IMG/VR virus record: IMGVR_UViG_3300048576_000515
Coordinates: 1 to 26,938 of that record
Source: a virus
Taxonomy: Duplodnaviria > Caudoviricetes
Length of the DNA stretch: 26,938 nucleotides
Direction: 5' to 3' (one strand)
The translations under genes were made by a program, and so were the position numbers. Under the pieces are notes generated by a model. The model was given only the letters and a program-made list of their open reading frames with translations, did not search any database and had not been told where the DNA came from. This document shows positions 3,221 to 12,670 of this stretch, piece after piece. How positions within the stretch are numbered: the first letter of the stretch is position 1; the number at the start of each line of letters is the position of its first letter.

Positions 3221-3756
3221 ATATGCACCCAGGTTTTACGATGCACGATACGATATATCGTAGAATGATCCACGCCAAACATGGCACCAAGGGGTCGGTA
3301 TCCGATTCCTTTCTGCACAAGTGTTCTAATTTTTCTAACATCGTCCTCATTCAGTATGGCACATCCGTGATCCTCTCCTATCTGGGGCGGGTGAAGCCCT
3401 GCTTTTACAGCGTGGCGCATATTCTCTTCCTGAGTTGCCCATTCAAGGTTGTCGGCTTTGTTGTTAAACCGATTGCCATCCTTATGGTTCACCTGACCTT
3501 TGGAATCTTTATTGTCAAGAAAGACAGATGCAACCACCCGCGCCACGCGATGAGTCTTAGCATTCCCATTTTTAGAAAGACTAACCTTCAGATATCTCTC
3601 GTTGCAAGCGAACTGCTTTATTATCTTGCCATGAACAAAAGCCATCCGGCCGGATGGACTTTTTTTAATGAATCTGTCCAACGACCGAATTTCGCCAAAG
3701 TTAGAGACTTCATACAGTCCTTCATATTCAACGACAGGCTTCCATTCTGTTTCCAT
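3217..3756 (-). CDS. NUMOD4-HNH homing endonuclease with C-terminal HTH
   Basis: WKPVVEYEGLYEVSNFGEIRSLDR (NUMOD4); HRVA...VNHKDGNRFNNKADNLEWATQEENMRHA (HNH); AT-rich; ATG at 3756 preferred over TTG at 3768. Confidence 0.92.
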   Translation of the reverse strand: METEWKPVVEYEGLYEVSNFGEIRSLDRFIKKSPSGRMAFVHGKIIKQFACNERYLKVSLSKNGNAKTHRVARVVASVFLDNKDSKGQVNHKDGNRFNNKADNLEWATQEENMRHAVKAGLHPPQIGEDHGCAILNEDDVRKIRTLVQKGIGYRPLGAMFGVDHSTIYRIVHRKTWVHI

Positions 3757-3831: not shown

Positions 3832-4200
3832 ATGAACTACGCCACCACCGCCGCCCGCGCCGCCGCCCAAATCAAGGCCAAGGGCCAGCCCATCACCATC
3901 ACCCGTGCCCAGGACGGGAACGGAGAGTTTGACCCGGCCACCGGGGCGTACGTTCCCGTCGATCCCCTCACCTTCTCGGGCTACGCCGTCGCCAGCAACT
4001 ACAGCCAGAATCTCGTTGACGGCGCCCTCATCCAGCAGGGCGACAAGCTTTTCACCGTAGCGGCCTCGGGCCTGGGCTGCGTGCCCATGGCCTCGGACAG
4101 CCTGACGGACGCCGCTGGCGACGTCTGGTCGGTCGTCAACGTGGGCATCGTGAGCCCGGCCGGCGTGGCGCTGCTCTACAAGGTCCAGGGGCGCAAATAG
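3832..4200 (+). CDS. Head closure / head-tail joining protein
   Basis: 122 aa; FDPATG and VDGALIQQGDK motifs, ends LYKVQGRK; canonical position. Confidence 0.75.
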   Translation: MNYATTAARAAAQIKAKGQPITITRAQDGNGEFDPATGAYVPVDPLTFSGYAVASNYSQNLVDGALIQQGDKLFTVAASGLGCVPMASDSLTDAAGDVWSVVNVGIVSPAGVALLYKVQGRK

Positions 4201-5051: not shown

Positions 5052-6218
5052 ATGCCCATCACCAACCCCATCGGAACCGCCAGGGAGCAGGCGTTTTTCT
5101 TCAGCCTGGAATCCGCTCGCGGCTCCCTCATCGCCCCCGCGTCCAACGCCGGCCTGATCACGGCCGGCTACGCGGACATGAGCCAGAACCCGAGCTTCAC
5201 CGACTCCGAGGAAATCCCGACCAACACCCGCGGCCTGATCGACCAGTTCCAGGACCAGACCGGGGCCGGGACCTGTACCGTGCCGTTCTATTTGCGCCCG
5301 TCGGGGACGGCCGGCGTCGCCCCGCTGGCCGATGGCATTTTGACCAGCCTTTTCGGCAAAAAGACCGTCACATCGGGAACGAAGGTCGTCTATTCGCCGG
5401 CCATCACCAAACCCTCCGGTTCTGCCTGGTTCAAGCGCGGGCACACCCTCTTCTTTTCGCGCGGCGGCGTCGTGGATCAGGGGAAAATCACCGCCTCCAA
5501 CAAGGGCGCGGCCAAGCTGGAGGCGAACCTCCAGTTCATGCAGATGGGCTGGGCCGGTCGCGATGGCGTCGCTTCCGCCGCTGCCGCCGCCGCAACACAG
5601 GTCACGGTTTACAAAGCCAAAAAGTATGCGGTCGGCGCCCTGATTCACAACAAGACGAAAAGCGACCACGCGACCGTTGGCTACACCGTCACCGCCGTGG
5701 ACGTCGTCAGCAACAAGCTGACCATCAGCCCGGGCATCGTCACCGCCGGCGGATGGGAAGTGGACGACATCATCGAGGGTTGGCTGCCCACCGCCTCCAC
5801 CAGCATCGGCCGTCCCATCGAGAGCCGCAAGACCGTGGTCACCATCGGGGGCACGGCTCGGACGCTGCAAAGCCTGGATCTCACCTTTGCCGACAAGGTC
5901 GTCATGATCGTGGACGAGATGACCCCCTCGGGCTTCCCCGAGGACTACGGCGAGGATGTCCGCAAGGTCAGCGGCATGATCAAGCTCCACTTCCGTGCGA
6001 ACGATGCCGTGGCCTTCTACGACGGCTCCAACGGCACCGAGCAGGCCATCTCGATCCAGTTCGGCGACACGGCCGGCTACAAGAGCCGGATCGACATGCC
6101 CCGCTGTCGTCTCCAAGTCCCGAAGCCCAGCACCAACGCGCCTTTCGTGGACATCAGCATCGACTTCACGGCCCTGGAGCAGGACGGCGAGGACTCCATC
6201 ACCCTCACGTTCGAGTAG
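5052..6218 (+). CDS. Major tail (tube) protein
   Basis: 388 aa; AGGAGG RBS; strong GC3 bias; sits between terminator and chaperones; ends in a typical ..ITLTFE strand. Confidence 0.8.
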   Translation: MPITNPIGTAREQAFFFSLESARGSLIAPASNAGLITAGYADMSQNPSFTDSEEIPTNTRGLIDQFQDQTGAGTCTVPFYLRPSGTAGVAPLADGILTSLFGKKTVTSGTKVVYSPAITKPSGSAWFKRGHTLFFSRGGVVDQGKITASNKGAAKLEANLQFMQMGWAGRDGVASAAAAAATQVTVYKAKKYAVGALIHNKTKSDHATVGYTVTAVDVVSNKLTISPGIVTAGGWEVDDIIEGWLPTASTSIGRPIESRKTVVTIGGTARTLQSLDLTFADKVVMIVDEMTPSGFPEDYGEDVRKVSGMIKLHFRANDAVAFYDGSNGTEQAISIQFGDTAGYKSRIDMPRCRLQVPKPSTNAPFVDISIDFTALEQDGEDSITLTFE

Positions 6219-6307
6219 CCTTTCGCGGGTCGGATAGGGCGCGCGCCCGACAAGCGGAATCCCCGGCCGCTTCCGGCCCGCCAAACTCGGGGAAAGGGGA
6301 AAGAATC

Positions 6308-6694
6308 ATGGCTCTTAAGTTCTCTCTCAAGCCGAAGGAAAAGAACATCCGGATCCTGTCCGCCCCGGGCGTCGTCTGGAAAGTCGTGCCCATGACCTCA
6401 TCCGAGGATGCGGAGCTCGTCAAGAAATTCCAGGAGTACGATACCCGCGCCCGGGCCTATCTCGTTTCGGACGACATGGGCCTGCTCAAGGCCAGGGCCA
6501 TCCAGATCATTCGGGGGTGGGAAGGCCTGCCCGGGGACGAAACCGATGCCGACGGCAAACCGATGATGATCCCCTACACCACGTCCAACCTGGAGGCTCT
6601 GTGCGAGATGGCCACGCCCGTTATCTCCGAGGTCATCCTCGAGTCCCGCCGGGCTGACGCCTTGGTCGTGGAGGCCGCCGAAAAAAACTCCTAG
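6308..6694 (+). CDS. Tail assembly chaperone (gpG-like)
   Basis: True start MALKFSLK at 6308 after a purine-rich RBS; IIRGWEG motif; ends EAAEKNS over a slippery sequence. Confidence 0.8.
   Translation: MALKFSLKPKEKNIRILSAPGVVWKVVPMTSSEDAELVKKFQEYDTRARAYLVSDDMGLLKARAIQIIRGWEGLPGDETDADGKPMMIPYTTSNLEALCEMATPVISEVILESRRADALVVEAAEKNS
6682..6688 (+). other. -1 programmed ribosomal frameshift site (A AAA AAC)
   Basis: X XXY YYZ heptamer in the correct phase just before the TAG; the -1 frame is open from 6688 to 7119. Confidence 0.85.
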
Positions 6695-7119
6695 CCTGGG
6701 GTCGGTGGGACATCTGGAGCCTTGAAGGGGACCCATGCGATGCCTGTCGCGATCTCTATGAGGACGATGACCTTAGACCGCCATGTGGGGGGCATGAATG
6801 CCTGAGGCCTGATGACCTTTGGCCCGAGAATGTCACCCTATGGAAAATCTGGAAGATAGCGGATAAGCATGATCGGCCGACGCGAACGGAATTCATTGCG
6901 ACGATGGGGGCCGCCCAGTCCGTCTCCGTCCCGGCCAGGATCCCATCCCAGGCTATCGGGAGTCTCTGCGAGGTCTACGACGAATCCCTGGAGTCGTTCG
7001 AGCGAATATTGTGGCTCGAAAACAGGCTTTACCCGCTGATCCTGGAACGGTCGGAGCGGGACAGGGGGCAACAAGGAGACGGGGGTGGGGGCGGAAGCCC
7101 GTGGGGAGAGGAAGATTGA
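6688..7119 (+). CDS. Tail assembly chaperone gpT part (made as a G-T fusion)
   Basis: -1 frame reads LLAWGRWDIWSLEGDPCDACRDLYEDDDLRPPCGGHECLRPDDLWPENVTLWKIW... and joins track ORF 6904..7119; LWPEN..W motif. Confidence 0.8.
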   Translation, partial: LLAWGRWDIWSLEGDPCDACRDLYEDDDLRPPCGGHECLRPDDLWPENVTLWKIWKIADKHDRPTRTEFIATMGAAQSVSVPARIPSQAIGSLCEVYDESLESFERILWLENRLYPLILERSERDRGQQGDGGGGGSPWGEED

Positions 7120-7121
7120 AC

Positions 7122-7153
7122 AGGGGCCGGCGAGAGTCGGCCCCTTGTTGTTG
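7122..7153 (+). terminator. Intrinsic terminator-like hairpin after the tail chaperones
   Basis: AGGGGCCGGC-GAGA-GTCGGCCCCT followed by TGTTGTTG; the G-U pair and GNRA loop favour the + strand. Confidence 0.65.
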
Positions 7154-7164
7154 AACTCCCAGGA

Positions 7165-7243
7165 AAGGCGACGCCCACCCACGCGGGGCGTGACATGGGA
7201 CAGGGCGGATTCTCCGGGTCATCTCCGCTATCGCGGGGAACAA
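7165..7243 (-). CRISPR. CRISPR-like mini-unit: type I-E-like repeat, 20-21 nt spacer, degenerate second hairpin
   Basis: Minus strand 7243-7215 = TTGTTCCCCGCGATAGCGGAGATGACCCG, 23/29 identical to the E. coli I-E repeat GTGTTCCCCGCGCCAGCGGGGATAAACCG; then GAGAATCCGCCCTGTCCCAT; then GTCACGCCCCGCGTGGGTGGGCGTCGCC. The first repeat is well supported, the second is weak. Confidence 0.75.
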
Positions 7244-7247
7244 ATGG

Positions 7248-7667
7248 TCATTTCCCTGCGCGGGCGTCCAACACCTCACTAATCAGTTTTTGCAATGCGC
7301 GCAACCTGTCGCTGGTCATGCGCGGGATCTGCCGCTCGATGACGACGCCGTTGCCGACCGGAAACGGCTCGACGCCGCATCGCCCCCGCATGTCCCGCAC
7401 GGCCTCGCCGCTGCGGCCGAGCAGCTGGCCGACGCGGGCGTCGGTGTCCGTGCCGAGCAGGGCTACCTCGTGGTTTGTCCACTCGCTGTACGCCTCGCGC
7501 TCGGCCGGGGTGACGTGGCCCAGGGAGGCAGCCGGGATGTGCCAGTGGCCACGCTCGTCCTGTTCGGCGCCGGGGATTTTGCCGGCGGCGCACAGGCGGC
7601 GCACGCGCACGGCGGTCGTGCCGGCCTGTTTTGCGGCGGCGTGGGGGGAGAGGTGGGTGTCAGGCAT
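7248..7667 (-). CDS. HTH DNA-binding protein (excisionase/MerR-like HTH plus a second helical motif); Aca-like candidate
   Basis: LSPHAAAKQAGTTAVRVRRLCAAGKIPGA...GHWHIP; second motif WTNHEVALLGTDTDARVGQLLGRSGEAVRDMR; GGAGG RBS; overlaps the cas5 3' end by 8 nt. Confidence 0.8.
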   Translation of the reverse strand: MPDTHLSPHAAAKQAGTTAVRVRRLCAAGKIPGAEQDERGHWHIPAASLGHVTPAEREAYSEWTNHEVALLGTDTDARVGQLLGRSGEAVRDMRGRCGVEPFPVGNGVVIERQIPRMTSDRLRALQKLISEVLDARAGK

Positions 7668-8427
7668 GGATGCGCCTCCAGGTTTCCTCCCGAAAATTAC
7701 GCCCCTTGCCGGTCGGGAGACTCCAGCCGGTCAGGGTGGAGCCGTGTTCGTCGTCCCCTGTAAACGCGAACGCGTCGAGGAGTGTCTCGCGCAACCAAAA
7801 TTGCGGCCTGTTGTCGGGATGGTATTTGCCGCCCCAATCCCGGCGCAAATGCGCGTCCAGGGGATAGGCGCGCAGCGCGTCCACGGGGGTTTCGTGCTCC
7901 TCGATCCGAGGCGCAAGGGGAACGGCCAGGGCGCAGGATTTGCGCCCGAAAAACGGAACCCAGCGGGGGCGGCGCATGGCCTCGGCCAGGGTTTCGAGAG
8001 GAGGCGCGGCCGGACCGATGGTCCAGGCGGCCACCACGAACGGTGCGTTTTGCAGGTACTCGCGGCGGGACAAATTGGGATGGGGCCGTGTGGTCGGCGG
8101 GCGGTAGCAATGTTGCCGCGTGTAGGCCGCCAGCTCGTCCGCGCGGGTGAAAAGCGGTGTCAAATCCTTGCCCTCGGATGGAATTTGGATGGTGTGGAAA
8201 TCGGTCATGGGCGGCGCGGCGGGATTGATGGCCATAACGCACAGCCCCAGGTCGTCAGCCATGGCCGCCAGCTCCAGACGGCGGTCACGGCCGATGCCCA
8301 GGCAGGCTCCGAACAGGCCGATAAGCTGGGACGTGCGCGGGATTTTAGCGCTTGGTCGGATTTCGCCGTAGGCCTCGCGCCCCATGGCGGCCAGGGGCGC
8401 GTAGAGTTGGAACGTGAGGAATTGCAC
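7660..8427 (-). CDS. cas5e: Orphan type I-E CRISPR-associated Cas5 (CasD/Cas5e) homologue
   Basis: FQLYAPLAAMG..AYGEIRPSAKIPRTSQLIGLFGACLGI.RD, DFHTIQIP, TRADEL, LSRREYL and LAEAMRRPRWVPFFGRKSC match Cas5e blocks in order; 255 aa; GGAGG RBS with GTG start. Confidence 0.9.
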   Translation of the reverse strand: MQFLTFQLYAPLAAMGREAYGEIRPSAKIPRTSQLIGLFGACLGIGRDRRLELAAMADDLGLCVMAINPAAPPMTDFHTIQIPSEGKDLTPLFTRADELAAYTRQHCYRPPTTRPHPNLSRREYLQNAPFVVAAWTIGPAAPPLETLAEAMRRPRWVPFFGRKSCALAVPLAPRIEEHETPVDALRAYPLDAHLRRDWGGKYHPDNRPQFWLRETLLDAFAFTGDDEHGSTLTGWSLPTGKGRNFREETWRRIHA

Positions 8428-8439
8428 GGTGCGCCTCCG

Positions 8440-8856
8440 TCAGTTGGCGAGGTCGAGCGCGCCGTCGTCGTTGATTTCATAGGCCACGTCGCCGCCCTGG
8501 TCGCGCACGGCCTGGGCCAGGCGCGCCGTGCAGGGGCGCACGTACAGGCTGCCGATGGTTTCGCCGCCGATGCGGGCGCGGGGCGTCTCGACCTCGGCCT
8601 CGCCCTCGATCCATTGCCGGGCGTCCGCGATGGCGGCCTGCGCGCTGTTGCCGGTCCCGAACACGTTGTGGCCGCTCTGGTACACTGCGTACATGGTCGT
8701 TTCCTCCGGGTTTTGTGCGTTGGCGTCCCTGGCCAGGGCCTCGCGGACGGCGTTCTCACAGTATTTGGTTTTGCTCCAGCCGCCGCGCTTGGCGGCCGCG
8801 ATCTGGATTTGCTGGTGCTCCTCATCGGTGAGGTTGCGCAGGGTCATGATGGGCAT
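8440..8856 (-). CDS. Ribbon-helix-helix N-terminus fused to a small acidic domain (internal start at 8694); Acr/regulator candidate
   Basis: MPIMTLRNLTDEEHQQIQIAAAKRG resembles a FitA/Arc-like RHH; internal GGAGGAAACGACC-ATG gives an 84-aa product MYAVYQSGHNVFGTG... Confidence 0.7.
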   Translation of the reverse strand: MPIMTLRNLTDEEHQQIQIAAAKRGGWSKTKYCENAVREALARDANAQNPEETTMYAVYQSGHNVFGTGNSAQAAIADARQWIEGEAEVETPRARIGGETIGSLYVRPCTARLAQAVRDQGGDVAYEINDDGALDLAN

Positions 8857-8903
8857 GGCGTCCCCTCTCTTGTTTCCGGCTCGGGCCGATTCCCGTTTGC
8901 TGT

Positions 8904-8939
8904 TAGCTGCAATATATGCACTAGCCGCAATGCAGTCAA
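8904..8939 (-). promoter_or_regulatory. Sigma70-type promoter of the cas5 operon with overlapping direct repeats
   Basis: TTGACT (8939-8934), 17 nt, TATATT (8916-8911); TAGCTGCAAT (8904-8913) and TAGCCGCAAT (8922-8931) repeats. Confidence 0.75.
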
Positions 8940-9037
8940 GCCCAAACTTAAAATTTCCTCTATTTTTATACTCTATTAAACCAGGTAGTTACCATGGGCG
9001 TGCAGCGTAAGCGCGGGCCGGGGGGGCTATACCCACC

Positions 9038-9063
9038 AAAAAAGGCCGCTCTTCCGAGCGGCC
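9038..9063 (-). terminator. Intrinsic terminator of the antirepressor operon
   Basis: Minus strand GGCCGCTC-GGAA-GAGCGGCC-TTTTTT. Confidence 0.85.
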
Positions 9064-9089
9064 CATAACCTCTTATCCTCTCCCCTGCC

Positions 9090-9224
9090 CTACGCCGGCA
9101 CCACCTCCGGGGCCGGGGCGGCGTCATCCCGGTTGCCGGCTGTCTCCCGGCATATCACGCGGGCAAGCTCAAATATAGCCATGGCCAGGGCCTTTGCCTC
9201 GTCGGCATTTCGGGGGTCGCTCAT
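9090..9224 (-). CDS. 44-aa hypothetical protein (not in the ORF track)
   Basis: AGGAGG RBS then MSDPRNADEAKALAMAIFELARVICRETAGNRDDAAPAPEVVPA; fills the gap between the upstream stop and the terminator. Confidence 0.6.
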   Translation of the reverse strand: MSDPRNADEAKALAMAIFELARVICRETAGNRDDAAPAPEVVPA

Positions 9225-9227
9225 GGC

Positions 9228-9533
9228 CTACCTCCTCTCCAGCCCGAGGGCGCGTTCGAAATCGCGTTGCGCCGGTATTGGCTTCGGCTCGTCCTGTTCG
9301 GCCTCGTAGGCCTCAATTTCGCGCTGCGCTTCGGGGGTCGGTTCCCACCCCTCCTGGCAGGGCTTGGCGCTCCAGGCGACCGTGATGCTGACGTCGAGAG
9401 GCGTCATCCCGGCTCGGGCCATGCCCTCCCTGGCATTTTCCTCGGCCCCGGCACAGGTGCCCTTGGTCCAGTCGCGCTCGTTCTCGCACCATTCCGTGCA
9501 CATCGAGCAATTGGCGTACGTGGGGATGTTCAT
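9228..9533 (-). CDS. Small acidic Cys-containing hypothetical protein (101 aa)
   Basis: Likely start MNIPTYANCSMCTEWC 11 nt after the antirepressor stop; CxxC plus further Cys; Glu-rich. Confidence 0.65.
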   Translation of the reverse strand: MNIPTYANCSMCTEWCENERDWTKGTCAGAEENAREGMARAGMTPLDVSITVAWSAKPCQEGWEPTPEAQREIEAYEAEQDEPKPIPAQRDFERALGLERR

Positions 9534-9544
9534 GGTTACGCCCC

Positions 9545-10525
9545 CTACACCATCATCCTGGACAGCAAGCCGATGCCGTCCAGGGTTTCGTCCATCAGGC
9601 GCCATCCTGCCCACGCGGAGTCATGGGCATAGCCCAATGCCCTCAGAAATCGGGCCATGGCCACATCGGGCAAGTCCATGGCCCTGTGTGGGCCGCCAGC
9701 CAGAGCGTTCTCAACCTGCCGGCGCACATCAAAGGCTACCCCCTGAAAGCGGACGAAGATCTCTTCGAGGGCTTGCCTGGCTTGCTGGATCTTTTCAGGG
9801 GCAAGTCGTTGAATCGGCCGGCTCTCACGATACAAAGGCCGCTCCGGATCGAACGCCGGCGGCAACGCCTTGGGCTGCTCGCCGGCCGGCAGGGTCAGCT
9901 TCATTTCCATGGCCAGGATGTAGCTCACCACGTCCGGGTACACCGCCTGGGGAATCTCCTCGTACTTCGCCACCTGGAACTTGTTCTTCACCCGGCTCCA
10001 GGCTTCCTTGAAGGCCTTTGGGCGCAGTTCCGAGGGGTAGTGCGAAACCTTGGCCGCGATCAGGTTTTGGATCGAAAGGCGGGAAGAGGTGGAGAGGGTC
10101 GCGGGGAGGGCAGGGGCGGCGGGGGCTTGCTGGCGGTTAAAGTAATTCTCTTCCAGAAGCTCAAACACGTCCCAGGCCTTGTCCGTGTTCAACATCTTGG
10201 CGTGGCGGGCCGCTCCTCGTTCCGTCCAAAGGGTAAGCTCTCCTCCCGTTTTCGGGACGAGGTCGGATGAGTCCGAATTTCGGACGCATTCCTTGAGGGC
10301 GCGCAACTCCTCGCCGGAAACCTTGAAAAGGTGCTTGCCTTCGGTAAAGCGGTCGCGGTTGGCACGGTAGTTCTCGCGGATTCTGGTCTGCGTTGTGCCG
10401 TATACGGCCGAGAGCAACGCCGTTGTCAGAACGGGAACGTCCTTATAGAGAATGGGGGTCAGGGATTCGACGGGGATCACGGGATTGCCCGCGACGACGG
10501 GTTCGTTTAAGATAGCGGTAGCCAT
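9545..10525 (-). CDS. Phage antirepressor-like protein (ORF6N domain plus ORF6C/P22AR-like region)
   Basis: PVLTTALLSAVYGT...IRENYRANRDRFTEGKHLFKVSGEELRALK...LWTERGAARHAKMLNTDKAWDVFELLEENYF; WSRVKNKFQVAKYEEIP; ATG at 10525 follows GAGGTG. Confidence 0.88.
   Translation of the reverse strand: MATAILNEPVVAGNPVIPVESLTPILYKDVPVLTTALLSAVYGTTQTRIRENYRANRDRFTEGKHLFKVSGEELRALKECVRNSDSSDLVPKTGGELTLWTERGAARHAKMLNTDKAWDVFELLEENYFNRQQAPAAPALPATLSTSSRLSIQNLIAAKVSHYPSELRPKAFKEAWSRVKNKFQVAKYEEIPQAVYPDVVSYILAMEMKLTLPAGEQPKALPPAFDPERPLYRESRPIQRLAPEKIQQARQALEEIFVRFQGVAFDVRRQVENALAGGPHRAMDLPDVAMARFLRALGYAHDSAWAGWRLMDETLDGIGLLSRMMV
10485..10513 (+). promoter_or_regulatory. Antisense promoter inside the 5' end of the antirepressor gene
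   Basis: TTGCCC (10485-10490), 17 nt, TAAGAT (10508-10513). Confidence 0.6.
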
Positions 10526-10600
10526 AATCACACCTCGCACGTGTGGTTGCTGGTTAGGCCCTGGTCGGGTGTTCCACCACCCGGCTGGGGCTGTTTACTT
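10519..10600 (+). ncRNA. Putative sar-like antisense RNA covering the antirepressor start codon and RBS
   Basis: Promoter upstream; 14-bp stem 10558-10591 pairs fully only on the + strand (three G-U pairs) and is followed by TGTTTACTT. Confidence 0.6.
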
Positions 10601-10756
10601 CCTGCTTGCCTTCGCCTCTTCCTCCTCCAGAAGCTTTTGCAGGCATGCCACAAAAAGCCCCTTGATCGTGGTCTCCTTGTCCACGGCAAGCTGCTTAATT
10701 TTTTCGTGAAATTTCTTGGTTACACGGATCGTTATGGTGGTTTTCTCGCCGTCCAT
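10595..10756 (-). CDS. Arc-like ribbon-helix-helix repressor (53 aa)
   Basis: MDGEKTTITIRVTKKFHEKIKQLAVDKETTIKGLFVACLQKLL; directly upstream of the antirepressor; no SD, possibly leaderless. Confidence 0.75.
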   Translation of the reverse strand: MDGEKTTITIRVTKKFHEKIKQLAVDKETTIKGLFVACLQKLLEEEEAKASRK

Positions 10757-10763
10757 GGCTTCA

Positions 10764-10792
10764 GATATAATTATATCGTCATTACAAGTCAA
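10764..10792 (-). promoter_or_regulatory. Promoter/operator for the RHH-antirepressor operon
   Basis: TTGACT (10792-10787) upstream of an AT-rich -10 region that lies within the perfect palindrome GATATAATTATATC (10764-10777). Confidence 0.6.
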
Positions 10793-10824
10793 GCCTGTCC
10801 AGCGAAATTATTGCGGGTGTCAAG

Positions 10825-10858
10825 AAAAAAAGAAGGCCCCCGGATTTTCGGGAGCCTT
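10825..10858 (-). terminator. Intrinsic terminator of the AT-rich moron genes
   Basis: Minus strand AAGGCTCCCG-AAAATC-CGGGGGCCTT-CTTTTTTT. Confidence 0.85.
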
Positions 10859-10907
10859 GGGCTAGCTGAGCCAGGAGAAAGTCAACCTTGAAGAACCTTG
10901 ATGCAAC

Positions 10908-11822
10908 TTACCGTGATTCTTTCAAATCTTCCAGCATAAATTCAGCTTTTCTGACATATCCACGGTAAGCATTGCCTGTATAGTCTGTAACTATAGAACG
11001 CAGAAGCGACCTTGCCTCTTTAATGAGGCCGAATTTTATAAATATTCCAGATAAATTCAGTTTGACATTGATAACCTCCGGCGTCAACTCCTCTACACGT
11101 ATCCTGCAAAATTCAGCATCGTACTTCCCGACTACACCCTTTGCCATGTTGACTTGCCATTGGCCATAAATATTTGAACTTATTATATCAATATCATTCA
11201 ATATGCTTGCAAGAAGTTTTACGTCAATCAGCCCGTCTTGCTGGTTGCTCGCGGTTGAATAATACAGTTTGATTTTTTCAACCAAACTTTCCCCCTCTGC
11301 CTTGCAGTCTTCTTTTTTTACAACAGCATCTTTGCGAACATCGCCATGCCCTAAAGCGGTGCATATGCCGCTGAGAAGGGTAAAAAGAGGTTCTCCATTT
11401 TTAACCTCCATGACGGGGAATTTTCTATTGTTGTCAAAAACAAGAGCGCCTTTAGACGAAAAATATTTGTCTGTTAGAACATTCATTTTGTTGTTATCGC
11501 AATTGAAAACTATTTCTCCCACGCCATATGATACATTTTTCAAATCAACTGACGCTAAGTCACTATTTAGCTTAAGGCGGTCTCTCCCATCATTAGATAA
11601 ATTCAATTTCATCTTAACCTTGTATATTTTCCCGCCTACGTGTTCGACAGAACCTTTGTCGTAATATGTTTCCCCCGCGCGCTCTTTAAGCAAAGGTGTC
11701 CACATCTCTCGCTGTGCGATGCACTCAGATGTAATAGTCATGTGTATGCACGCAGCGACAAAAGTAACAAGCACAAACGCTGAAAACTGATTCAATGCAC
11801 TCGAAAAAATTAATTTTAGCAT
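10908..11822 (-). CDS. Exported/membrane-anchored hypothetical protein (adhesin-E-like N-terminal domain, helical C-terminus)
   Basis: Hydrophobic N-terminus; W..L....TYYDKGSV...FNC...KYFSSKG...IC pattern; AT-rich moron. Confidence 0.6.
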   Translation of the reverse strand: MLKLIFSSALNQFSAFVLVTFVAACIHMTITSECIAQREMWTPLLKERAGETYYDKGSVEHVGGKIYKVKMKLNLSNDGRDRLKLNSDLASVDLKNVSYGVGEIVFNCDNNKMNVLTDKYFSSKGALVFDNNRKFPVMEVKNGEPLFTLLSGICTALGHGDVRKDAVVKKEDCKAEGESLVEKIKLYYSTASNQQDGLIDVKLLASILNDIDIISSNIYGQWQVNMAKGVVGKYDAEFCRIRVEELTPEVINVKLNLSGIFIKFGLIKEARSLLRSIVTDYTGNAYRGYVRKAEFMLEDLKESR

Positions 11823-11824
11823 AC

Positions 11825-12670
11825 CTATAATCCGTCCTTCATCTTGAAGTAAGCTTGCATTTTGTGTACAACGGACTTTCCTATTCCGGGGATCTCTAGT
11901 ATCAAATTAACGTCAGCTGATTTTATGTCATCGATTGTATAGAAGCCTTTTTCAAAAAGTACTTTTGCCGTCTTTAGACCAACTCCAGGAATTTCTGTTA
12001 ATTTGTTATAAAAGAACGACTCCGGGAAATCAGAAATATTGTTCTTGAGTGTTTTTGCATACTCGCTATAAAGTTCATTCGAACAACAAAGATCGTTTAT
12101 TGCTTTAATTTTATCAAATACAAGTGAACTGCTTTCGACTATTTCACGAAATGAAATGAGAAACGGTAAGAACTTCGAACTATCCACAGGACCGACAGAC
12201 GAGGACGACATACATGGTTTCATCTCATCAATATCTACCCCTAGGGAGCGCCACGTTCTAGTTTTATGAATCCACATGCCGTCGCCTTGACTGCCTATAG
12301 ATGGCAATTTAGACGGTGGGCCTTTGTGAAATTCTCCATGGTGCCGGAGGACACATAATGGAGTCCTTAGTATTAGGTTGGCAAGGAATACATATCCAGT
12401 AAGGACGTCGCTATTTTCCTCAAAGTACTCATCGTTGTGCAAAAGTTCATATGAGGCGCGAAACTCATAAGAATTCCTGATAATCGGTACGGTTTCTCCT
12501 TCTACCTCGAAATCAAATAGTTCCTTTTTATATTTATTGTATTTCCCCTCTTCCTCAAGGACCCTTCTCCCCACAAGGCGAAGTACATCATGTCCAGTTG
12601 CCTGCGCCTCGCCGTTTTTTGGGGGGCTTTCTTTCCCCAGCAGCGACAAGAAGAACTGTTTTAAGCCCAT
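11825..12670 (-). CDS. Hypothetical protein with C-terminal tandem helix-hairpin-helix DNA-binding motifs
   Basis: LTEIPGVGLKTAKVL and ILEIPGIGKSVVHKM; AT-rich. Confidence 0.75.
   Translation of the reverse strand: MGLKQFFLSLLGKESPPKNGEAQATGHDVLRLVGRRVLEEEGKYNKYKKELFDFEVEGETVPIIRNSYEFRASYELLHNDEYFEENSDVLTGYVFLANLILRTPLCVLRHHGEFHKGPPSKLPSIGSQGDGMWIHKTRTWRSLGVDIDEMKPCMSSSSVGPVDSSKFLPFLISFREIVESSSLVFDKIKAINDLCCSNELYSEYAKTLKNNISDFPESFFYNKLTEIPGVGLKTAKVLFEKGFYTIDDIKSADVNLILEIPGIGKSVVHKMQAYFKMKDGL

Follow-up and report, generated by a model that had tools for sequence, protein, structure and literature searches.

A candidate prophage anti-CRISPR cassette with an orphan Cas5e gene and a short crRNA-like guide matching the cas7 start of type I-E operons

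Organization of the cassette and its relatives

The window, by which we mean the whole 26.9-kb stretch of DNA analyzed here, is a provirus fragment, estimated as 38% complete, whose gene content includes head and tail genes. Between the tail tube and tail chaperone genes and the tape measure gene lies a minus-strand accessory region organized as an operon: a promoter-like site, a ribbon-helix-helix (RHH)-like ORF, cas5e and a helix-turn-helix (HTH) gene are followed by a repeat-guide-hairpin element that closes the unit. The features are as follows.

8939-8911, minus strand: sigma-70-type promoter heading the cassette; 10/12 consensus positions; the only one found in 6200-11000
8856-8440, minus strand: 138-aa ORF, its N-terminus weakly ribbon-helix-helix-like (PF22513, E=0.019, below cut-off)
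8427-7660, minus strand: Cas5e (CasD) homolog, 255 aa, GTG start (TIGR01868, 138 bits vs. a cut-off of 69; PF09704)
7667-7248, minus strand: 139-aa helix-turn-helix protein (HTH_17, E=0.008, below cut-off)
7243-7215, minus strand: type I-E repeat mimic, 29 nt; 6-bp stem with one C.A mismatch; 8-nt 5' handle at 7222-7215
7214-7194, minus strand: guide, 21 nt; over positions 1-18 (7214-7197) it agrees with the cas7 RBS/start of host-type I-E operons everywhere but at position 12 (7203)
7193-7162, minus strand: degenerate terminal hairpin with a CTTTCC tail; GC hairpin at 7188-7173 (folding), lacking an I-E handle and homologous to the terminal hairpin of the sister array described below
7122-7145, no strand assigned: 10-bp GC hairpin between the converging tail chaperone gene and the cassette; terminator-like site listed on the plus strand

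The original prediction had concerned the crRNA-like unit alone; the co-transcribed orphan cas5e and HTH gene had not been part of it. The promoter match is not significant by itself, since shuffled sequences give 0.8 +/- 0.9 such matches; a TTGACT element with a similar -10 region occupies the equivalent upstream place in the sister cassette. The 138-aa ORF has a 76% identical counterpart upstream of cas5e in the sister cassette, belongs to no named Atlas family and is possibly an autoregulator or an Acr. The HTH protein has six homologs, a dN/dS of 0.22 relative to the sister copy and Atlas leads that are HTH_17 clusters, all with scores <0.9, making it a candidate Aca-like regulator.

This sister cassette, 86% identical and carrying the same three genes, lies in a prophage (L001) within a Desulfovibrio-type MAG (G001). 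After the three genes come a repeat, a 32-nt spacer, a second repeat, ~23 nt and the same terminal hairpin, leaving the window with one repeat-spacer unit fewer. Spacer 1 of L001 (11214-11245) is 13/18 identical to the CreR spacer of a related genome, G004, and matches the promoter target of that spacer at 11/15 (6/500 shuffles); possibly it serves as a conventional Cracr against a strain outside the sample. Neither L001 spacer matches cas7 or has a site with <=2 mismatches in its own host G001 except the array itself, and no target above background was found for spacer 2. A type I-C repeat (9419-9450) stands alone in the same operon, ahead of the RHH-like ORF. We regard it as a candidate RacrIC; the bases following it had no target in the six loci examined. 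In a more distant relative, L121 (= L159), the HTH gene (65%) precedes an I-E mini-array of two repeats whose spacer is 26 nt long (3353-3435). This locus also has a solitary I-C-like repeat (about 4140-4170) and, upstream, what may be one more degenerate repeat of I-E-like type (about 2391-2420); cas5e is absent. Its spacer lands weakly on a host CreR site, with 14/500 shuffles doing as well on run plus match and 444/500 on matches alone. The CreR target sites met weakly by this spacer and by L001 spacer 1 are those of G004 and G080, and we treat these matches as suggestive only.

The HTH gene and an I-E mini-array thus occur together in three loci, two of which have cas5e, and a solitary I-C-like repeat lies near the array in both L001 and L121. 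Since L121 has the array without cas5e, the two are separable. HTH homologs at 56-58% identity (L117, L122, L160, and L161) are accompanied by neither a repeat nor cas5e. Searches of IMG/VR with the HTH, tail-tube or Cas5e protein or with the junction pattern revealed no further copies of the cassette, nor did a search of JGI metagenomes with Cas5e. The handle-plus-guide pattern had 30 matches in IMG/VR, none with an upstream repeat hairpin. Alignment of Cas5e returned two viral loci, both complete I-E operons, and INPHARED contained three distant Cas5e matches (34-39% identity).

We infer from the related cassettes, and from a tail-tube homolog at 56-59% identity in 1 of 25 genomes of the G001 genus, that the window belongs to a prophage of sulfate-reducing bacteria, the true host being deduced from these relatives. 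Of 405 host spacers, none came within 7 mismatches of the window, and none ties it to a strain. In another genome, G003 (C3:85224-87601; L245 and L246), the tail-tube homolog lies in two halves on opposite strands, which suggests an inversion or insertion.

Several other features of the window were recorded. An Rfam match to int-alpA RNA above the gathering score lies on the plus strand at 6227-6292, between the tail tube and tail chaperone genes; the same Rfam search gave no match at the repeat-guide element. The tail chaperone ORF (6308-7119, plus strand) has an A-run just before its stop codon, and another frame is open to 7119, consistent with a programmed frameshift. On the minus strand, 9090-10792 holds a second accessory operon that has terminator-like hairpins and in which two small ORFs accompany a small RHH-like gene and a gene of the ORF6N/ORF6C antirepressor type, and 10908-12670 is a low-GC island (40-48%) of two genes, one with an Adhesin_E-like match and one with a helix-hairpin-helix domain.

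The orphan cas5e is the only cas gene in the 26.9-kb record, which contains neither cas7 nor cas6e, and the element lies on a mobile element outside any CRISPR-Cas locus, as far as the 38%-complete record extends. G001 has a single cas8e, cas7, and cas6e, all in the host locus, yet two cas5e genes. The best PDB sequence and fold matches of the phage protein are to E. coli CasD. Its dN/dS relative to the L001 copy is 0.17, and judging from its sequence, the orphan Cas5e is intact and under purifying selection. Three homologs were 59-86% identical to it (one named from Solidesulfovibrio sp. C21), and in a quick tree of 64 proteins the four formed a clade on a stem of 2.26 substitutions/site (SH-aLRT 100); identity to the host protein was 42-48%. 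The thumb-tip segment is 20 aa long and basic in this clade vs. 9-14 aa in 65 others (the lengths for P0002 and P0003 were taken from the alignment). A PRTS motif was present in 4/4 clade members and 0/106 others, of which 103 have P-x-R/K-S. We take both segments to be ones that contact the crRNA handle and Cas7 in E. coli Cascade structures. The C-terminal length of the clade members is ordinary. The structure model had a pLDDT of 56, falling below 50 in the thumb.

A type I-E repeat mimic and a guide that matches the cas7 start

The repeat begins 4 nt past the HTH stop codon, at the position equal to repeat 1 of L001. Its stem arms, CCCCGC (7238-7233) and GCGGAG (7228-7223), the single C.A mismatch (7237/7224, the second pair counted from the stem base) and a handle-like 3' end were all found on the minus strand, as first described, as was the short spacer of 20-21 nt, here the 21-nt segment at 7214-7194. 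The original prediction had also called for comparison with the host repeat: the mimic agrees at 22/29 positions with the repeat found in I-E arrays of related hosts, the best site in the window, a score reached by 0/300 dinucleotide-type shuffles of the window (maximum 21, in 7). With a folding energy of -8.2 kcal/mol, the mimic repeat is predicted to be less stable than the repeats of the host (-14.3) and of the sister prophage (-15.7); the mismatch weakens the hairpin that Cas6e must cut. The GCGGAG stem variant also occurs in 1 of 59 repeats counted, within a host array of G005, and the mismatch alone is therefore no special design. A 183-nt contig from a public run (X2) covers 7151-7332 with no differences, so neither the single-repeat form nor the stem mismatch is an assembly error; X2 may come from the source study and is therefore not independent evidence of spread.

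The unit is solitary, consisting of one near-complete repeat and a degenerate hairpin. A type I-C-like reading of this second hairpin had been proposed and proved weak: in local alignment the hairpin scored 35 with the sister prophage terminal hairpin, compared with 17 for a genuine I-C repeat and 18 for the I-E repeat. By sequence, it would be either a second repeat relic or a terminator-like end, and the hairpin at 7122-7145 might possibly also end the guide transcript. The naked RNA is predicted to bury the guide seed in its own tail (-23.5 kcal/mol).

In type I R-loops, as stated for type I-F1, every sixth base is unpaired, leaving 15 pairing positions among the first 18 of the guide. A genome-wide pattern search of 401 family genomes located a target inside the type I-E operon, behind an AAG PAM, at the junction formed by the cas11 stop codon and the RBS and ATG of cas7. 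All 15 pairing positions matched, with an AAG PAM, in G001 and G036; 14/15 matched in G004 and G005 (AGG), G025 (AAG), and G177 (AGG). The sole mismatch within positions 1-18 falls on the flipped-out position 12, and the change removes the ATG from the phage RNA. Positions 19-21 mismatch the target and positions 22-24 match again. The protospacer is on the coding strand, and the guide would pair with the template strand; the guide has the same sense as the cas7 mRNA, which precludes antisense action on its part.

The G001 operon runs cas3, CreR, cas8e, cas11, the site, cas7, cas5, cas6, cas1, and cas2, with the flanking cas11 and cas7 assigned by NCBIfam; no internal promoter consensus was found in this operon. 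The PAM consists of the last two bases of the cas11 stop codon and the first G of the Shine-Dalgarno sequence, and a TAA-to-TAG change in that stop codon leaves an AGG PAM, as in G004 and G005. From its sequence, the target looks hard to escape. The cas7 site was the single best genome-wide match in all five genomes tested. We located 24 cas7 starts in 30 loci, of which 5 score 14-15 and the other 19 score 6-9 of 15. Three genomes of the genus with more divergent cas8e matches (G006, G009, and G022) had no site at one mismatch.

The original prediction had placed the guide's target next to a PAM, especially in cas promoters. A PAM-adjacent match in a host cas operon was indeed found in silico, at the cas11-cas7 junction and not at a cas promoter. 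No convincing guide match was present in 50 (30 + 20) cas8e-upstream regions, and 335/500 shuffles matched the promoter zone as well as the guide did; the same PAM-aware scan recovered the AAG-flanked targets of 8 of the 11 host CreR elements used as controls, 360-450 nt ahead of cas8e. Among 15 CreR spacers from the 50 cas8e-upstream regions, the best was identical to the guide at 6/18 positions, against a Cracr threshold of at least 9 PAM-proximal matches, and unsampled strains could differ. As for a self-target in the phage, no convincing PAM-adjacent site was seen in the window or in the G001 prophage contig.

A CreR-like mini-array separates cas3 from cas8e in the I-E operons of related hosts, among them G001, G004, G005, and further members of the family. 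Of 15 CreR-bearing Desulfovibrionaceae I-E loci, 10 (L035, L044, L047, L050, L053, L058, L060, L062, L064, and L068) contain an ORF of 27-33 aa with a basic start and a hydrophobic tail between the CreR-targeted promoter and cas8e, ~185-240 nt upstream of the latter. Its product is a candidate for a type I-E leader peptide or a peptide toxin resembling CreT. Four other short ORFs among the 50 cas8e-upstream regions look different.

The guide resembles a generic RBS plus ATG, and we examined how often such a match arises. Sites with <=1 mismatch numbered 75, in 56 of the 401 genomes, compared with 13 for a reversed control; 68 were itemized and the remaining 7 were assigned to G118 by subtraction. 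Twenty-five of the 75 were identified, including six cas7 starts, which are homologous and therefore count as one event. Exact sites outside cas genes numbered four, in 4/401 family genomes (by eye, one each hemL-like, transposase-like, and ychF-like and one intragenic), or ~0.01 exact background sites per genome, and the sole exact site in G001, the carrier of the sister cassette, is a cas gene start. When all 53,840 18-mers of the window were used as mock guides, a PAM-adjacent score of 15/15 in the G001 operon was reached by just one, whose first base, 7214, directly follows the repeat. We also considered and rejected the possibility that the guide is a remnant of cas5e capture: it matches host DNA at 18/19, far closer than the cas5e DNA (~68%, in patches), and is therefore not a leftover of that event. 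Sixteen of the one-mismatch sites lie in a single genome, G118. Comparable sites in G058, G155, and G048 stand at the start of a gene that by eye is transposase-like, so the G118 sites probably represent copies of an insertion sequence.

Proposed action of the cassette and competing explanations

The anatomy of the element, the intact orphan Cas5e and the 18-nt PAM-adjacent match in I-E operons of likely host relatives are shown in silico. We propose, with a probability of roughly 0.65, that this is a phage anti-CRISPR cassette in which a Cracr-like guide makes host Cascade a roadblock before cas7 and is co-expressed with a modified Cas5e. Cleavage of the first repeat by host Cas6e would release an RNA in which the 21-nt guide sits between an 8-nt handle and a 3' tail that is left uncut. 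A short Cascade with ~4 Cas7 subunits would then bind the cas7 site, pairing with the template strand, in an 18-bp R-loop that would not license Cas3. The bound complex would slow RNA polymerase ahead of cas7-cas5-cas6-cas1-cas2, resulting in less Cascade, crRNA processing and adaptation, while the guide RNA would also compete for Cas proteins. Finally, the phage Cas5e would join Cascade, either as an AcrIB3-like faulty subunit in immune complexes or as the Cas5 of the repressor complex; by analogy, it could be either a poison or a supply, and this is the weakest of the five steps.

Published work on Cascade bears on these steps. In E. coli, mismatches over positions 19-32 are reported to allow robust Cascade binding with neither interference nor priming (PMC5904413), and template-strand targeting inside an ORF gave ~5-fold silencing, more than non-template targeting (PMC4288158). 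Intragenic repression by Cascade is described as weaker than promoter repression (PMC5904413, PMC4288158). Competition for Cas proteins has been demonstrated as a second effect of Cracrs (10.1101/2024.10.29.618823). The original prediction took the short spacer as a sign of binding without cutting, and length alone does not bear this out, as E. coli Cascade with a 20-nt spacer, shortened by 12 nt, is reported still able to interfere (PMC5159557); judging from the E. coli results (PMC5904413), the mismatches after position 18 matter at least as much. In S. thermophilus, Cascade fails to lock when its spacer is shortened, and R-loops in the unlocked state do not survive positive torsion (PMC6859484). 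Because short-spacer R-loops are unlocked and torsion-sensitive, the roadblock could be weak, and because silencing of cas7 also starves the repressor, only partial repression is expected.

A more elaborate form of the proposal, which we hold only tentatively and consider doubtful as a whole, is a two-part takeover of Cascade: the short guide would throttle host cas7-cas5-cas6-cas1-cas2 and the phage Cas5e, re-engineered, would replace the dwindling host Cas5e, such that short repressors assemble and bind DNA and full-length immune complexes are disabled. The site of such a takeover would be fixed by the stop codon, RBS and start codon and would lie downstream of the host CreR feedback promoter. 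Escape would be costly for the host because the target is constrained by three overlapping signals.

It is rather unlikely that the unit is a decoy or relic, that is, a former self-targeting spacer whose RNA is now a Racr-like Cas6/Cas7 sponge or inactive, with any anti-CRISPR effect coming from Cas5e only. The weakened stem and predicted seed burial would fit such a history, as would the renewed match at positions 22-24, a hint of an older, longer spacer, and the loss of one repeat-spacer unit relative to L001; RacrIF1, moreover, is reported to inhibit through RNA upstream of the cut site without a target (PMC10651486). Pairing is nevertheless perfect exactly at the positions relevant to binding, with the single change at a flipped-out base, a pattern that random decay would not favor, and the stem variant taken as a sign of decay is found inside a host array. 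Sponge action, which the original prediction had offered as an alternative, could operate in parallel with the guide; on its own it leaves the target match unexplained, and a PAM-adjacent target argues against a pure sponge.

Less probable still is a self-destruction guide, in which infrequent Cas3 recruitment or priming by the short Cascade at the cas7 start would select for lysogens whose own cas operon is deleted or broken. The PAM is the canonical AAG, and spacers shortened by 12 nt are reported to support both interference and priming in E. coli (PMC5159557). Pairing here ends at position 18, a configuration reported to give neither interference nor priming (PMC5904413), StCascade fails to lock when shortened (PMC6859484), and chromosomal cutting would usually kill the lysogen.

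We give very little credence to a chance origin of the 21 nt as an RBS-like sequence (e.g., a dead phage gene start) resembling the cas7 start, for despite the enrichment of RBS-plus-ATG look-alikes (75 vs. 13 sites) and the four genomes with exact non-cas matches, exact background sites are rare (~0.01 per genome), G001 has its single exact site at the start of a cas gene and the match begins exactly after AAG, as for only 1/53,840 mock guides. Equally remote is an antisense RNA made by plus-strand read-through from the tail operon and blocking translation from the cas7 RBS/ATG without Cascade: 17 of the 18 plus-strand bases at 7197-7214 complement the cas7 mRNA, yet such an RNA requires read-through of the 7122-7145 hairpin and leaves the repeat, the PAM register and the position-12 change unexplained.

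Relation to known systems

The closest parallel to the proposed roadblock guide is the Salmonella prophage CracrIE array (Liu et al., 10.1101/2024.10.29.618823), described as a prophage-borne mimic of the I-E repeat whose spacer is 21 nt long and whose final repeat is degenerate; this natural I-E Cracr is reported to leave its last repeat unprocessed. Like a Cracr, the guide has a PAM-adjacent partial match in the host cas locus, and as in the I-F Cracr linked to a protein Acr (AcrIF24), it stands beside a protein, here Cas5e. Cracrs, as defined in that account, match host CreR/CreA spacers and target cas or creT promoters, and the present guide, compared with 15 CreR spacers and 50 cas8e-upstream regions, does neither; because it lacks a CreR-like spacer and a promoter target, we have not filed it as a Cracr. 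The main text of the Cracr paper (10.1101/2024.10.29.618823) contains no occurrence of "cas5," "cas7," "coding," or "start codon."

AcrIB3 is a Cas5 homolog and an anti-CRISPR of Listeria phages (Katz et al., 10.1101/2023.06.24.545427; review PMC13131331). As described there, it shares with the phage Cas5e a full-length Cas5 homology outside a cas operon, a clade of its own and, putatively, a clade-specific loop insertion. AcrIB3 is 38% identical to the host Cas5, compared with 42-48% here, and it has lost the Cas8-binding hook, whereas the phage Cas5e has an ordinary C-terminal length. Unlike AcrIB3, which is type I-B, the phage protein is type I-E and lies beside a guide RNA; the text of the AcrIB3 preprint (10.1101/2023.06.24.545427) does not contain "type I-E."

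Phages also silence cas operons by CasPR roadblocks inside cas genes (10.64898/2026.02.23.707548), and binding within the cas operon to block RNA polymerase is likewise what we propose here. CasPRs are described as CapR+AP2 proteins, whereas the proposed roadblock would be RNA-guided host Cascade; the cassette proteins had no Pfam or NCBIfam match to CapR or AP2 domains. With Racrs (PMC10651486), the unit shares a solitary repeat in a phage accessory operon, downstream of a promoter and an HTH gene. Racrs are reported to act by sequestration without a DNA target, through an aberrant Cas6-Cas7 subcomplex, while the unit here has its PAM-adjacent target. The repeat-spacer-degenerate repeat layout is also that of host CreR/crlRNA mini-arrays (Shmakov et al., 10.1101/2023.03.03.530964), which are host-encoded and described as aimed at the cas8e promoter; the present guide is phage-encoded and would be aimed at the cas7 start. 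Our literature search, which took in few subscription papers and no preprint supplementary tables, turned up no phage I-E Cas5 beside a guide and no guide at a cas7 start.

The orphan Cas5e is a candidate type I-E counterpart of AcrIB3, and together with the guide it is a candidate new protein-RNA pairing like AcrIF24-CracrIF. If the two-part takeover were true, it would be the first I-E Cas5-derived anti-CRISPR in the literature searched, with a captured Cas subunit working with a phage guide. The known viral crRNA mimics copy host regulatory guides and target promoters. Since the published target searches consulted here used matches to CreR/CreA spacers or to intergenic promoter regions, guides directed at gene junctions within operons would be missed, and some "targetless" viral mini-arrays may have targets at gene junctions inside cas operons.
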